From: a virus
Taxonomy: Duplodnaviria > Heunggongvirae > Uroviricota > Caudoviricetes
DNA length: 44,611 bases
Direction: 5' to 3' (one strand)
Virus record (IMG/VR): IMGVR_UViG_2703718850_000006
Span: 1 to 44,611 of that record
Shown here: positions 16,564 to 37,098 of the stretch, piece after piece
Layout of the letters: every line of letters starts with the position of its first letter
Position numbering within the stretch: position 1 is the first letter of the stretch
The notes under the pieces: model-generated
Told to the model about the DNA's origin: nothing
Seen by the model: the letters and a program-made list of their open reading frames with translations, nothing else
The model's database searches: none
Made by a program: the position numbers and the translations under genes

Positions 16564-17592
16564 TTATTTCACCTGAACTACCACAAACGCGTCCGGATCC
16601 GGCAACACCATCAACGGCGCAGACTGCGTCATGGTATATTCGCACCCCGGGTCCCCCACCTCTAACCAGTGTTTCGGATAACGAATTGCAGAGGTGATCC
16701 CTTCACTCAGCGCCTGGTTATCCTGGATTGCGCCATAACAACGGACACCCTCCACCTGAGTGTTTCCAAGAATCAGTGTGCCTTCCGGCAGATAACGCTG
16801 CTCATCCCCGTTTTCATCAACATACGTTGTTTTCGCCACCATGATGGCCAGATCACCGTAATAACCTTTAAAAGAAACCACGGAACCCAGATCTTTCAGC
16901 GCGGTTTCCAGTTCAGATTTTGAGCCACGGCGGGTATCCAGTTTTTCACGAAACAGCTTAAAACCGTTCAGCATACGCCAGACAGTACCGTCCATAATCG
17001 CAATATTGATGGTACCGGAAGCAAAATCGCAGTACGCATCCAGATCATGCGTCGGATCAAAGGTGTCAGCATTCTGTTTTGACCATTCGCGTCCCCCTGC
17101 CTGCGTAATGTTATTGGCGGCAGAACGACCAAAATCCACTTCCACCGTCTCAAACTGTTCACCGCTCATGGTGTACTTACCCTGCAGAACAGCGCTGACC
17201 GCCTGCATTTCTTCCACCTGCACAATCGCTTGCTCTTCCTGTTTCAGGTTGTCAGTCAGAATACGCAGGCGACGGTAGGCCGGGTCATTAAGACGGGCCG
17301 GATCTTCCCCCGGAAGACGCTCCACCGCCTGCTGATAATCCAGCCGGTGTTTTGGTTTAACATAGCCGGGGCGTAACACGCGGGTTTCACCACCACGACT
17401 GCGCAGTACCTTACCTGACACAACCGGAGACACATATGCCGCAACCGGTGTTTTTCCGGTGATTTTATCCAGCATCACTTCCTGAGTATGGAAAGTGACC
17501 GTACGACGAAAAAACAGCTCCAGAAACAGCGCACGGAATTTCACTTTCTGCTCGGTGTAGCCGAGCAACTGACGCGTGGTAAATAACCCCAT
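16564..17592 (-). CDS. E: major capsid protein E
   Basis: ORF 16564..17631 trimmed to ATG after AAGGAAAG; 342 aa, strong similarity to lambda E. Confidence 0.95.
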   Translation of the reverse strand: MGLFTTRQLLGYTEQKVKFRALFLELFFRRTVTFHTQEVMLDKITGKTPVAAYVSPVVSGKVLRSRGGETRVLRPGYVKPKHRLDYQQAVERLPGEDPARLNDPAYRRLRILTDNLKQEEQAIVQVEEMQAVSAVLQGKYTMSGEQFETVEVDFGRSAANNITQAGGREWSKQNADTFDPTHDLDAYCDFASGTINIAIMDGTVWRMLNGFKLFREKLDTRRGSKSELETALKDLGSVVSFKGYYGDLAIMVAKTTYVDENGDEQRYLPEGTLILGNTQVEGVRCYGAIQDNQALSEGITSAIRYPKHWLEVGDPGCEYTMTQSAPLMVLPDPDAFVVVQVK

Positions 17593-17661: not shown

Positions 17662-17997
17662 TCAGGCGTGGCTGATGGCACTTCCCACAAACGCGTTGGC
17701 TTTTTTCACCGCATCCACCGAATCCGGCCAGACCAGCGATTCGGTGGCAAACGTACCGCTTTTGTAGTACGTCAGTGTGGGCTCGGTCCCGGCCAGCGCC
17801 AGTACCAGCACCCCCACAGCCGTTCCGGCTTTCTGACCATCCCATGCCACCAGTTTTCCGCTGGCGTCATCCAGCATCAGTGGCGTCAGTGAAGGCGTGG
17901 CAACACTGATACCACTGGTACCTGTTGCGGTATATACCGGATCGCTTCCGGCAAAAATGCGCCCGTCCGCGCGCTTTTCTGTGGTGGTTTTAATCAT
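17662..17997 (-). CDS. D: head decoration protein D
   Basis: ORF 17662..18027 trimmed to ATG after AGGAGA; 111 aa, lambda D-like. Confidence 0.9.
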   Translation of the reverse strand: MIKTTTEKRADGRIFAGSDPVYTATGTSGISVATPSLTPLMLDDASGKLVAWDGQKAGTAVGVLVLALAGTEPTLTYYKSGTFATESLVWPDSVDAVKKANAFVGSAISHA

Positions 17998-18037
17998 TTT
18001 CTCAGTCTCCTGATTTATCTGAATCACGGATCCCCGC

Positions 18038-19654
18038 TTACGGCATACTCATCAGCAGTTCTTCTTCCCCGTTCCCGGCAGTTCCGCCACCGGAAACGGC
18101 ACTGGCGGCATGCTGAGCCATGAAGCGCTCAAAAAGTGTTACCTGTGACGGTTGCGATACTGATGGCGCAGCTGCCAGCAGCGTTTTCGCCTGCTCCACT
18201 GTCATTCCAGGTTGTTCAGCCAGCGCCTGTGCCAGTTTTTCGCGTCCTTTTGCTTCCGGCAACGCAATAATTTGATCGCCGGTACTTGCCGTACCGGTTG
18301 CCGGTGCCGCTGCCAGTAGCATTTTCGCCTGTTCCACCGTCATTCCCGGCTGTTCAGCCAGCGCCTGTGCGAGTTGTTCACGCCATTTTGCTTCCGGAAG
18401 TGCCATAATCTGCTCGCCGGTACTTGCCGCACCGGCAACCGGTGCCGCTGCCAGTAACGTTTTCGCCTGCTCCACCGTCATTCCCGGCTGTTCAGCCAGC
18501 GTCCGTGCCAGTTGTTCACGTCCTTTTGCTTCCGGAAGTGCCACAATCTGATCGCCTGTGCTGTCAGTACCGGCAACCGGTGCTGCCGCCAGTAATGTTT
18601 TTGCCTGCTCAACTGACATTCCCTGCTGACCTGCCAGCATCTGCGCCAGTTTTTCGCGTCCTTTCGCCTCCTGACAATTCAGGATCCCCATCACGCGCTG
18701 ATTTTCCCGGGACACCGCTTCAGCAACGGTGAGATTTTTTGTTGTCATCGTATTCTCCTGTGTAACAGAGTCGTTCAGAGCAGAAACCATTACATCAACG
18801 GCATCTGCAGCATTAATCAGTTGATCAGCCAGGCCTGTATCAATGCCTGCCTGACCGTCATAAACGGCAGCCTCGGTATTCATCACCGCCTCTGAACTCA
18901 GCCCCGTATAAAGCGCCACCTTGTCGACAAACATCCGGCGGGCCTCATCAATACGGCGCTGAAAATCCGCACGCACACCTGTCGGCAACGCCTGAATACT
19001 GTTGCCGTCAACCTTGTGCTGCCCGGAGTAAATCAGCGTGATATCCACGCCTTCCTGTGCCAGTTGTTTCTCGTAACTGGTGTGCGCCATCATCACACCA
19101 ATCGAACCAATTTTTGCCGTCTGCGTGACCAGCCGACGCGTACAGGCCGCCGCCAGCAACATGGCGGCTGAACAGGCCATGTCATTACACAGCGCCCACA
19201 CGGGCTTCTGTTCCCGCAGACGGTAAATCATGTCAGCACAGTCAAACGCCCCGGCAGCCTGACCACCCGGACTGTCGATATCCAGTAAAATGCCGCGTAC
19301 ATCCGGGTCGTTCACCGCTGACTTAAGACGGGCAGTCAGACCGTCATAACCGGTCATACCGGAATATGGCCGCAGGGTACCCATTTTATGTACCAACGTG
19401 CCGCTCACCGGCAGAATGGCAATACCATTTTTCACCTGGTAACTCTTTACCGGACGCGGACCACCAGTCATATAATCGGTAACCGCCAGCTGCATACCAT
19501 CGGCATCAAGCTGAACGGCCTGCTGCGGAACGGCAAGGCTGCCCGCCCCCATCTCCTTACCCAGTGCGCAAAAGAAAACCCGCGCATAGGCGGGTTCCAG
19601 TAAAAGCGGCTCATTAAATGCCATCGCGGCAATATGTGATAAATTACAGCGCAT
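18038..19654 (-). CDS. C: head maturation protease / scaffold (C, with embedded Nu3-like region)
   Basis: 538-aa ORF; N-terminal S49/ClpP-like region matches lambda C; C-terminal third has four 46-aa tandem repeats. Confidence 0.9.
   Translation of the reverse strand: MRCNLSHIAAMAFNEPLLLEPAYARVFFCALGKEMGAGSLAVPQQAVQLDADGMQLAVTDYMTGGPRPVKSYQVKNGIAILPVSGTLVHKMGTLRPYSGMTGYDGLTARLKSAVNDPDVRGILLDIDSPGGQAAGAFDCADMIYRLREQKPVWALCNDMACSAAMLLAAACTRRLVTQTAKIGSIGVMMAHTSYEKQLAQEGVDITLIYSGQHKVDGNSIQALPTGVRADFQRRIDEARRMFVDKVALYTGLSSEAVMNTEAAVYDGQAGIDTGLADQLINAADAVDVMVSALNDSVTQENTMTTKNLTVAEAVSRENQRVMGILNCQEAKGREKLAQMLAGQQGMSVEQAKTLLAAAPVAGTDSTGDQIVALPEAKGREQLARTLAEQPGMTVEQAKTLLAAAPVAGAASTGEQIMALPEAKWREQLAQALAEQPGMTVEQAKMLLAAAPATGTASTGDQIIALPEAKGREKLAQALAEQPGMTVEQAKTLLAAAPSVSQPSQVTLFERFMAQHAASAVSGGGTAGNGEEELLMSMP
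18164..18670 (-). repeat. in-frame 138-bp tandem repeat array (about 3.7 units) inside C
   Basis: Nucleotide periodicity (gcgttttcgcctgctccac... recurring at about 18181, 18319, 18457, 18595) and protein repeats EAKGRE.LA..LAEQPGMTVEQAKTLLAAAP. Confidence 0.8.
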
Positions 19655-29309: not shown

Positions 29310-29614
29310 ACCACAAATACGCCACTCAAATGTTAATGCCATATAACAAAACAAAACATACGAATAACACATATTACATCAAATACATCATTGTTATTTT
29401 TCAATGAAAAATGAGTAAATAATGTATTTCATTAATTAAATTCCGCATTACACAAAAATATCGACAAATTATACCAACGCGCATAAATGAGATCTTGATC
29501 ATATTATCAATCACTAAATTAAACTTGCCTCTTGAAATAACCACATTGATTAGATGAATATTTGTCGCGCAGTGACATCATTTTTTAAAAATAGTTCAAA
29601 AAAAAGGGTTCGTG

Positions 29615-30718
29615 ATGAAAAAATTAACGGTGGCAATTTCTGCTGTGGCTGCATCAGTACTGATGGCGATGTCTGCTCAGGCAGCAGAGATTTATAATAA
29701 AGACAGCAACAAGTTGGATCTGTACGGAAAAGTTAATGCTAAGCACTACTTCTCCTCTAACGATGCAAATGATGGCGACACAACTTATGCTCGTCTGGGT
29801 TTCAAAGGCGAAACTCAGATCAACGATCAACTGACTGGTTTCGGTCAGTGGGAATATGAATTCAAAGGAAACCGTACTGAAGAACAGGGAGCAGCCAAAG
29901 ATAAAACCCGTCTTGCATTTGCAGGGCTTAAATTCGGTGACTACGGCTCCGTCGATTACGGTCGTAACTACGGTGTAGCATACGATATCGGTGCATGGAC
30001 TGACGTTCTGCCAGAATTCGGTGGAGATACCTGGACCCAAACAGATGTATTCATGACTGGTCGCACCACTGGTGTTGCAACTTATCGTAACAACGACTTC
30101 TTTGGTCTGGTTGATGGTCTGAATTTTGCTGCACAGTACCAGGGTAAGAATAATCATGATCGTAGTAGCTTAGATAACTACACCAAAGGCAATGGCGATG
30201 GTTTTGGTTTCTCTGCGACCTATGAATACGAAGGTTTCGGCATTGGTGCAACGTATGCGAAATCTGATCGTACCGACACTCAAGTCAAATTGGGTAAACT
30301 TCTCCCAGGAGTATTTGCTTCCGGCGAAAATGCAGAAGTCTGGGCTGCAGGTCTGAAATACGACGCAAACAACGTTTATCTGGCAACAACCTATTCAGAA
30401 ACCCAGAATATGACTAAATTCGCAGATTACTTTGTGGCTAATAAAGCACAAAACTTCGAAGCTGTTGCACAATATCAGTTCGATTTCGGTCTGCGTCCGT
30501 CTGTTGCTTATCTGCAATCAAAAGGTAAAGATCTTGGCATTTTTGGTGACCAAGATTTAGTCAAATATGTTGATGTTGGCGCAACTTATTATTTCAACAA
30601 AAATATGTCTACCTTCGTTGATTACAAAATCAACCTGCTTGACAAAAATGACTTTACTAAAGCTCTTGGTGTAAACACTGACGATATCGTTGCTGTAGGT
30701 ATGGTATACCAGTTCTAA
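29615..30718 (+). CDS. nmpC: outer-membrane porin, NmpC/OmpD-like (OmpC family)
   Basis: ORF 29612..30718 trimmed to ATG; signal peptide [23 protein letters not shown] and general-porin hallmarks; opposite strand between Q and late genes as in DLP12. Confidence 0.85.
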
Positions 30719-35330: not shown

Positions 35331-35560
35331 GGGTACACCTCCCGCACATCAGCCATGAGCATTTTGCTGGCTGTTTCCAGCGCCTGGTCGGCGCTAATTT
35401 GCATGACAGCCAGTGAATGAGGAACAAAAGCACCGGCATATTCTGTTTCACTGGTGGCGTGTTTATGCGCCATATCTGCAATCACAGAAATCTCAATCAA
35501 CGCATCCATCAGTGTCCTGATAACTGCAACGGTTGTATCCGGACGAGTGTTATTGCGCAT
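35327..35560 (-). CDS. hypothetical protein (77 aa)
   Basis: ORF with RBS GGGAGGTG, ATGA-coupled downstream. Confidence 0.5.
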   Translation of the reverse strand: MRNNTRPDTTVAVIRTLMDALIEISVIADMAHKHATSETEYAGAFVPHSLAVMQISADQALETASKMLMADVREVYP

Positions 35561-36215
35561 GGCGCACCTCCCATTGATTACGACAGAAAGTGGAGTGATT
35601 CAGGTGGGTTTCAGCTTCACGGAATGCTTCAATGCAGCTCTCGTAGTACCGCATTGTGCGCAGACTTAACCCAAGCTGAAGCATCATCAGACCATCAAGG
35701 GTGATGTAATAACCTCGCAAAGAGTCACCATAGATGTGATAAGTACCCGGTATGAAATTGCGGGTGAAAAATTCGCGCGAGCAGTTCAGGTACTCGATTT
35801 TGTCGACGATGTTCTGGTGCATGCGCTTGAAATGACAGGCAACATGCAGAGAGAAAATAACGGCCTTGCCGTTGACGACTTCGATTTTGAGGAATGGGGA
35901 AGTTGGGACAGTAGCCATGATGGCAGCCTCCGTATGCAATGGATAACTTCCACCACCGGAGCTGCGAAACTCATGGGTGGTGAACTGAACAGGGTTCGCA
36001 GTACCGGCGCATACGGAAACCGGCGAGCCTTTCGGCTCCCCTGCCCAGCCCACCATAATTCTGGCGTGCGTGAGCGCGGACGATAAAAAAGACGCTGGCG
36101 CGTCATATATCGCCGTATGCAATTCCGGGCTGCGACCCCCGGCACCCGCTTTATAAGGTGCAGAGACAGTGTAACGTTCCAAAAGTGCAGAATCAATATT
36201 CAGGTAGCGGATCAT
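35550..36215 (-). CDS. hypothetical protein, duplicated gene copy A (221 aa)
   Basis: ORF with strong RBS GGGAGGTG; near-identical to copy B over about 200 residues. Confidence 0.6.
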   Translation of the reverse strand: MIRYLNIDSALLERYTVSAPYKAGAGGRSPELHTAIYDAPASFLSSALTHARIMVGWAGEPKGSPVSVCAGTANPVQFTTHEFRSSGGGSYPLHTEAAIMATVPTSPFLKIEVVNGKAVIFSLHVACHFKRMHQNIVDKIEYLNCSREFFTRNFIPGTYHIYGDSLRGYYITLDGLMMLQLGLSLRTMRYYESCIEAFREAETHLNHSTFCRNQWEVRHAQ

Positions 36216-36871
36216 AGGTGCACCTCCCGTTGATGACGACGGAAAGCGGAATGTACCTGGACGGTTTCAGCTTCATGGAATGCATCAATACAGCTCTCGT
36301 AGTACCGCATTGTGCGCAGACTTAACCCAAGCTGAAGCATCATCAGCCCATCAAGGGTGATGTAATAACCACGCAGGGAGTCACCATAGATGTGATAAGT
36401 ACCCGGTATGAAATTGCGGGTAAAAAATTCGCGTGAGCAGTTCAGATACTCGATTTTGTCGACGATGTTCTGGTGCATGCGCTTGAAATGGCAGGCTACA
36501 TGCAGGGAGAAAATAACGGCCTTACCGTTAATAATCTCAATTTTGAGGAATGGGGAAGTTGGGACAGTAGCCATGATGGCAGCCTCCGTATGCAATGGAT
36601 AACTTCCACCACCGGAGGTTCCAATCTCACTGGTGGTGAACTGAACAGGGTTGGAACTACCGGCGCATACGGAAACCGGCGAGCCTTTCGGCTCCCCTGC
36701 CCAGCCCACCATAATTCTGGCGTGCGTGAGCGCGGACGATAAAAAAGACGCTGGCGCGTCGTATATCGCCGTATGCAATTCCGGGGTTCCAATCCCGGCA
36801 CCCGCTTTATAAGGTGCCGGAACAGTGTAACGTCCCGAAATTGCAGAATCAATATGTTGGTTGCGGATCAT
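36212..36871 (-). CDS. hypothetical protein, duplicated gene copy B (about 219 aa)
   Basis: ORF 36212..36892 trimmed to MIRNQ start; ATGA-coupled to copy A. Confidence 0.6.
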   Translation of the reverse strand: MIRNQHIDSAISGRYTVPAPYKAGAGIGTPELHTAIYDAPASFLSSALTHARIMVGWAGEPKGSPVSVCAGSSNPVQFTTSEIGTSGGGSYPLHTEAAIMATVPTSPFLKIEIINGKAVIFSLHVACHFKRMHQNIVDKIEYLNCSREFFTRNFIPGTYHIYGDSLRGYYITLDGLMMLQLGLSLRTMRYYESCIDAFHEAETVQVHSAFRRHQREVHL

Positions 36872-36888
36872 TTTGTACCTACTCGCCG

Positions 36889-37098
36889 TCAATCCGCGTT
36901 TTCGCGCTGATTCCAGTCATGAACAGCACGTTCTTTCGAATCAGGGATCTGGTTTGCGTTACAGCAAGTACATGCGACGTAATAACCATCATCGCCATCC
37001 AGAAAATATTTCACCTCAATGAGTTGTACTTCCGGATTTCCGCAGAACGGGCAAGGTTTCAGATCGACATCACCAGTTACACACGTCTTGGTTTGCAT
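36889..37098 (-). CDS. Lar-family restriction alleviation-like protein (zinc ribbon)
   Basis: 69-aa ORF with KPCPFCG...C.CC motif as I recall it in Rac Lar/RalR. Confidence 0.65.
   Translation of the reverse strand: MQTKTCVTGDVDLKPCPFCGNPEVQLIEVKYFLDGDDGYYVACTCCNANQIPDSKERAVHDWNQRENAD

Follow-up and report, generated by a model that had tools for sequence, protein, structure and literature searches.

A four-copy tandem module in the predicted head protease/scaffold gene of a lambda-like prophage

The window analysed here, i.e., the whole stretch of 44,611 nucleotides (nt) from a virus assigned to Caudoviricetes (IMG/VR record IMGVR_UViG_2703718850_000006, positions 1 to 44,611), carries a lambda C-like head maturation protease/scaffold gene, in which a tandem array with a period of 138 bp encodes four complete copies of a small protein module. 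This array is a real, old and selected feature. It lies in the part of the gene that appears to be read twice, as the C-terminus of the protease and as a nested scaffold, and the four copies probably act as docking modules for the interior of the procapsid, although other readings have to be weighed.

Tandem Repeats Finder (TRF) reports a single array on the minus strand, at 18171..18671 (period 138 bp, 3.6 copies, 84% matches, 0 indels, score 659), and no other array scoring at least 80 anywhere in the 44.6-kb window. Self-identity at an offset of 138 is 0.813, and none of 1000 shuffled sequences exceeded 0.395. The period is in frame with the open reading frame (ORF) 18038..19654 (minus strand), the C-like S49 protease/scaffold gene, and the translated unit reads xDQIxALPEAKGRExLAQxLAEQPGMTVEQAKTLLAAAP, followed by a linker of 6 amino acids (aa). 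An earlier note, made from the sequence alone, had described an in-frame unit of 46 aa (138 bp) inside a C-like protease/scaffold gene, and TRF, the Pfam S49 match and the translation all bear this out. Its figure of 3.7 copies recognised the repeat but slightly undercounted it, for a hidden Markov model (HMM) of the unit recovers four full-length copies (each with E ~1e-29), spanning nt 18161..18694; the TRF count stops at 3.6 because copy 1 is more diverged. The features of the gene are the following:

18038..19654, minus strand: C-like head maturation protease/scaffold gene, 538 aa (ORF list, Pfam, PHROG)
18785..19219, minus strand: S49 peptidase domain, aa 146–290 (Pfam)
18755..18759, minus strand: AGGAG Shine-Dalgarno sequence, 6 nt upstream of the internal ATG (direct sequence reading)
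18038..18748, minus strand: putative nested in-frame Nu3/gp6-like scaffold gene, 236 aa plus stop (match to the phage 21 gene 6 start)
18575..18694, minus strand: module 1, aa 321–360, VMGILNCQEAKGREKLAQMLAGQQGMSVEQAKTLLAAAPV (HMM E = 9.6e-29)
18437..18556, minus strand: module 2, aa 367–406 (HMM E = 5.6e-30)
18299..18418, minus strand: module 3, aa 413–452 (HMM E = 8.1e-29)
18161..18280, minus strand: module 4, aa 459–498 (HMM E = 5.5e-30)
18041..18160, minus strand: C-terminal tail (alignment with lambda and phage 21)

Module 1 is orthologous to the Tri1 box of phage 21 and shares 88% nt identity with the first module of the other alleles, while modules 2 and 3 of the window are 90% identical to each other. 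The tail consists of a short helix (TLFERFMAQ, 18110..18136), a low-confidence stretch and a terminal EELLMSMP, and it aligns with ALDRLM...DLLNTPV in lambda and MFEHFM...KMLMAMP in phage 21. In module 3, Trp424 (codon 18383..18385) replaces the near-invariant Gly of the EAKGRE motif, a residue that is kept in at least 90% of 61 family members; codon 424 is TGG in the window and GGG in the 99.4%-identical NS-NP030 allele, i.e., a single change. Trp424 may be a sequencing error, or it may mark a prophage in decay or a module that has been crippled and is tolerated because the array is redundant. Two further kinds of candidates in the array were set aside: an antisense ORF (18424..18732), rejected as an unsupported by-product of the repeat, and weak Pfam matches (Peptidase_C23, Bac_DNA_binding, T2SSK, HTH_15), which at best just reach the curated cut-offs and include no stretch that is significant by itself, and which we take as helix-turn-helix-like noise.

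The divergence of the copies speaks to their age and to the level at which they are conserved. Over the 138-nt unit, pairwise nt identity among copies is 58–90%, and over the 40-codon module their synonymous divergence (dS) is 0.19–1.6, with ratios of nonsynonymous to synonymous divergence (dN/dS, or omega) of 0.11–0.45. When the window is compared with the alleles E41 and TW10690 (~10% diverged), omega is 0.06–0.20 for each of the four modules and 0.06–0.10 for the protease domain. These values indicate that conservation acts on the protein and that every copy is under purifying selection. Modules 2 and 3 of the window are both nearest to module 3 of the other allele group (88%), to which E41 and TW10690 belong, and only 78–82% identical to its module 2, a pattern that points to conversion or turnover while the copy number stayed at four. 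Between alleles, dS is 0.52–0.64 in the repeat region versus 0.09–0.27 in the protease part (window against TW10690 and E41), with a sevenfold jump from the protease to the repeat part in TW10690; this suggests either that a recombination breakpoint separates the protease part from the scaffold part or that the array turns over faster.

The predicted nested product begins at Met303 (ATG at 18748) with MTTKNLTV..., at a position that matches the start of phage 21 gene 6 (MPQLTATEAAAQENQ...), and the AGGAG upstream matches the annotated ribosome-binding site of that gene. The Shine-Dalgarno sequence is kept as (A)AGGAG in the alleles E41 and TW10690, and stand-alone database proteins of 199–206 aa with an MTTKNLTV-type start were found. 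The annotated start of lambda Nu3 (codon 239) is not conserved in the window gene, which has Ile instead of Met. Judging from these sequence features, translation from Met303 would yield a separate scaffold, 178 of whose 236 aa are contributed by the array. Since the array falls inside the doubly read part of the gene, the protease and the nested scaffold would both carry the array and the tail.

AlphaFold2 models the whole 236-aa product with low confidence (predicted local distance difference test, pLDDT, of 55.9), and only its secondary structure and the location of its linkers were taken into account: there are four helix-loop-helix pairs, between which the linkers have pLDDT <50. Module 4 modelled with the tail (61-sequence alignment) has a core at pLDDT 87–89, which folds into a compact three-helix mini-domain (aa 458–497), and two short helices of lower confidence in the tail (query positions 56–64 and 80–83). 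The unit is thus modelled as a folded three-helix mini-domain of ~40 aa, strung like beads on flexible linkers of ~6–8 residues. This picture fits the title of a study, cited by PMC11922011, that calls lambda gpNu3 intrinsically disordered. In a structure comparison against viral models, the top three matches, all weak, were other phage S49/prohead proteases.

To place the array in its population, 5426 complete E. coli genomes were surveyed. The full gene is present in 105 of them, and in the best 60 of these 105 listed its length is exactly 1617 nt, except in one. A search with the scaffold part alone gave matches in 96 genomes, in 94 of which they span 80% or more of the query; the matches form two allele groups, at ≥98.6% and ~84–86% identity, and nearly all of those listed are collinear at 722–723 nt. 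The exception, PapRG-04-4 (1479 nt), is a three-copy recombinant, whose modules are hybrids of window modules 2/3 and 3/4. The three-copy form of phage 21 is found in 1870 of the genomes surveyed, versus ~96 for the four-copy form, and is 603 nt long in all records listed; the four-copy form was absent from the isolated phages of the collection searched. On the evidence of these sequences, the copy number is otherwise stable and is held fixed within lineages. The proposal of the earlier note that the array might be a recombination-prone length polymorphism is weakly upheld, by the three-copy recombinant and the signs of conversion between copies 2 and 3.

Many relatives are database entries labelled “S49 family peptidase, partial”, which start or end inside the array on contigs of 0.5–3 kb (e.g., P0002, P0007 and P0123–P0129), and which indicate that short-read assemblies break at the array. 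In practical terms, the array is a systematic short-read breakpoint and the source of many such partial entries. Two identical units are seen in the 81-aa fragment P0126, which may derive from a collapsed repeat.

Beyond E. coli, the module belongs to a large family. The array matches the cores of the PHROG “head scaffolding protein” and “capsid assembly protein” profiles four times, and a profile of the unit (10 sequences), searched against 1.84 billion cluster representatives, hit 1045 protein clusters with E ≤ 0.001. Among the best 150 of these 1045, 149 re-matched the unit profile, with one copy in 131 proteins, two in 13 and three in five, and none of the 149 had more than four; P0206, a 4515-aa protein matched in 11 stretches, was discarded as a false positive of low complexity. 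In nearly all of the proteins matched, the module lies either close to the C-terminus of an S49 protease (400–550 aa) or in a small stand-alone scaffold (100–200 aa), with a tail of ~40–60 residues after the last copy. The module has no Pfam model, and a sequence search of the PDB with the 236-aa scaffold returned nothing meaningful (best E = 0.91). These profile matches identify the module as the conserved core shared by lambdoid scaffold proteins and the C-terminal parts of S49 prohead proteases. A distant case is a Bradyrhizobium genome (GCA_040548125.1, L011 1..12594), in which a stand-alone protein of 197 aa (gene 6001..6594) has two module copies. The small element around it includes an integrase, DUF6074 genes, a tape-measure-like gene and, adjacent to the homologue, a 297-aa protein of no detectable family, and within 6 kb of the two-copy gene there is no gene for an S49 protease, a portal or a terminase. 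The element could be satellite-like or degraded, with a scaffold of its own.

What the modules do has to be approached through better-known scaffolds. Nu3 of lambda multimerises, interacts with E, C, B and itself, and is needed for the incorporation of the portal protein B (PMC3224144), and in other phage scaffolds a small helical element near the terminus docks on the N-arm of the capsid protein (PMC11922011, PMC3185693). The reading that we favour, though with reserve, is that the array provides four tandem protein-binding modules that dock the procapsid interior and are common to the nested scaffold and the protease. By analogy with the scaffolds just mentioned, the binding partner would be the capsid protein, and the benefit of additional copies would lie in valency. 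Each module would be an independent docking unit for the inner face of the growing procapsid, most likely for the E-type capsid protein, and a scaffold chain, being tetravalent, could bind as many as four adjacent subunits; the protease would be packaged along with it via the same module contacts and, if the analogy holds, would degrade the scaffold after assembly. As for its origin, the four-copy form may have arisen by unequal recombination from a phage-21-like multi-copy ancestor and then have been kept by selection.

Several observations weigh against this docking hypothesis. Lambda, with one copy, assembles a similar T=7-type head module. The capsid protein of the three-copy recombinant PapRG-04-4 is 100% identical to that of the window, so that, should this prophage be viable, the link between copy number and capsid protein is not a tight one. 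Trp424, at the near-invariant Gly of module 3, suggests redundancy or a decaying prophage. Finally, it could be the conserved C-terminal tail, and not the module, that serves as the capsid-binding element.

The strongest competitor, which we nevertheless consider clearly less probable than docking to the capsid protein, is that the modules mediate self-association of the scaffold or binding to the portal or initiator (Nu3–Nu3 and Nu3–B contacts), with extra copies raising oligomerisation or portal nucleation. Such a role would agree with the multimers formed by Nu3 and with its requirement for the incorporation of B in lambda (PMC3224144), as well as with the conservation of the EAKGRE face across families with very diverged capsid proteins, as would be expected if the partner, too, is conserved (for example the scaffold, the S49 domain or the portal); on the other hand, the same study also reports a Nu3–E interaction, and the two-copy Bradyrhizobium homologue has no portal or protease gene nearby. 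At face value, the finding of one, two, three and four copies in nature might instead indicate that copy number is near-neutral, the array being a redundant filler or a protease-cleavable string that yields small peptides able to leave the shell, and three versus four copies being the drift of unequal crossing-over. The identical capsid protein of the three-copy recombinant, the tolerance of G424W in one module and the turnover of copies 2 and 3 all agree with this idea, but it has to contend with purifying selection on every module (omega 0.06–0.20) and with lengths that are fixed, at four copies in ~96 genomes comprising two allele groups ~15% diverged in the scaffold region, and at three copies in 1870 genomes, whereas neutral arrays would be expected to vary more. 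We hold it to be rather improbable, and more so than self-association or portal binding.

Two remaining explanations have very little to recommend them. An assembly artefact or a very recent and unstable expansion, a concern already raised in the earlier note, might be suspected from the many partial homologues that end in the array on short contigs, but the copies differ at 10–42% of nucleotides without indels, which, as far as sequence data go, excludes an artefact or a recent expansion, and the identical, collinear four-copy architecture in ~96 independent complete genomes also disposes of the idea that the expansion is private to this window. That the repeat acts as DNA or RNA (e.g., as a regulatory site or a structured RNA) and that the protein periodicity is incidental is just as implausible: the phage 21 record OL657228 does have pattern-based “CII binding site” annotations inside gene 6, but the copies have kept their amino acids while their synonymous sites have nearly saturated (dS up to 1.6), and the array region has no Rfam match.

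If the docking hypothesis is carried further, the Tri box/Nu3 core would be a widespread and hitherto unrecognised capsid-interior docking domain, whose copy number (1–4) is a selected setting of valency. We put this forward as a speculative extension, more doubtful than docking itself. Were it true, valency would set the scaffold-to-capsid stoichiometry and the dosage of protease, or would harden assembly against interference (e.g., from capsid-redirecting satellites), and the four-copy prophage lineage would stand at the high-valency extreme of a testable natural series. The recognition of capsid proteins by lambda-type scaffolds is still poorly defined, and one to four natural copies on closely related (in one case identical) capsid proteins amount to a valency series, which allows tests of procapsid nucleation, fidelity and protease packaging.

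The host gene itself is readily identified. Peptidase_S49 (PF01343) covers aa 146–290 (E = 2.4e-33), the ORF matches PHROG 53 “head maturation protease” (E = 1.8e-219), and RefSeq homologues of the 538-aa protein bear the label “S49 family peptidase”. Ser162 and Lys214 of the window protease align with Ser166 and Lys218 of lambda C, Ser166 being reportedly the catalytic residue of the lambda protease. The gene is placed between the portal gene and the decoration and capsid genes, an order also seen in a RefSeq relative:

19644..21215, minus strand: lambda-family portal gene (Pfam Phage_portal_2, E = 7.9e-95)
17662..18027, minus strand: D-like head decoration gene (Pfam HDPD, E = 8.6e-22)
16564..17592, minus strand: E-like major capsid protein gene, 342 aa from MGLFTT (Pfam Phage_cap_E, E = 8e-65)

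Identity is consistently higher to phage 21 than to lambda, with 71.7% versus 61.4% for the protease part, 72.3% versus 51.4% for the decoration protein and 82.7% versus 58.7% for the capsid protein. By sequence similarity, the head module of the window is thus of the phage 21 type, within a lambda-like E. coli prophage, and, apart from the array variant, the gene is an ordinary part of a common E. coli prophage head module.

Other features of the window lie outside the array. A P1-type immunity module is tandemly duplicated with a period of ~656 bp (35550..36892, minus strand), its copies sharing a 300-nt core that is 92% identical, and an antirepressor gene follows it:

35973..36060 and 36629..36716, minus strand: two C4 antisense RNAs
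36085..36161 and 36741..36817, minus strand: two isrK RNAs
35550..36215 and 36212..36892, minus strand: Ash+Rha-like ORFs, one per RNA pair
37098..37952: ORF6N/KilAC antirepressor gene

Between the Q/late region and the replication genes lies a general porin gene (29612..30718, plus strand; Pfam Porin_1, E = 8e-152), which resembles the known lambdoid cargo of the nmpC/lc type. In the late-regulatory region, a tRNA-Gly(TCC) gene (27419..27491, minus strand) adjoins an N6/N4 DNA methylase gene (27710..28756, minus strand), a pair that is also annotated in the NS-NP030 relative. Finally, Rfam IS009 matches at full length (206.9 bits) at 846..1044 (minus strand), within the tail-fibre-assembly ORF 806..1387.

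Among known systems, the closest is phage 21, whose genes 5 and 6 (M81255; OL657228 CPT_21_05/06) form, as in the window, a protease/scaffold pair after the portal gene, with a nested start (putative in the window) and in-frame tandem copies of the module. GenBank M81255 annotates these repeats as “Tri1 box / Tri box / Tri3 box; function unknown; putative”. Phage 21 has three diverged copies and a nested scaffold of 200 aa, the window four copies and a predicted scaffold of 236 aa; moreover, window copies 2–4 are 82–90% identical at the nt level over the 40-codon module, while Tri2 and Tri3 of phage 21 are much more diverged. With four boxes instead of three, the window array is a variant of the phage 21 Tri box scaffold. 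Lambda, to which the earlier note had compared the gene, is the wrong comparator, since the window has a phage-21-type head module and phage 21 already has three copies.

Lambda C/Nu3 also combines an S49 protease, an in-frame nested scaffold (putative in the window), the module and a C-terminal tail, in the same gene order B–C/Nu3–D–E. The single copy ascribed to lambda C in the earlier note is confirmed by the unit HMM, which finds exactly one module, at aa 362–399 only (E = 1.7e-17), and so is the difference in length of about 100 aa, the window protein having 538 aa and lambda C 439 (99 aa fewer). The lambda module is preceded by a low-complexity spacer of ~60 aa, and the Nu3 start (codon 239) is inside the protease domain, unlike the putative Met303 start of the window, while protein identity between the two is only ~59–61%. 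The stand-alone gp6-type scaffolds of N15 and phi80 (131–137 aa) have the module and the tail beside an S49 protease, as in the window, but one module copy. The coat-binding helix-loop-helix of P22 gp8, phi29 gp7 and 80alpha is a functional analogy to the module only: these scaffolds have one binding element per chain and no protease fusion, and no sequence or fold match of the module to the solved P22 and phi29 scaffold domains was detected. The nearest known systems also include tandem three-helix binding modules, such as the domains of staphylococcal protein A and UBA/CUE.

In the literature searched, on lambda and phage 21 scaffolds and the lambda procapsid, no study of the repeats or of the partner of the module was found. 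Based on these sequence comparisons, the gene belongs to the lambda C/Nu3 class and, within it, to the phage 21 “Tri box” subclass. Multi-copy scaffolds as such are already annotated in the phage 21 record M81255, and E. coli prophages carry them very commonly. Possibly new with respect to these systems are the lineage with four copies, the view of the box as a three-helix folding unit that has ~1000 relatives and no Pfam entry, and the evidence for a copy number that is fixed within lineages.
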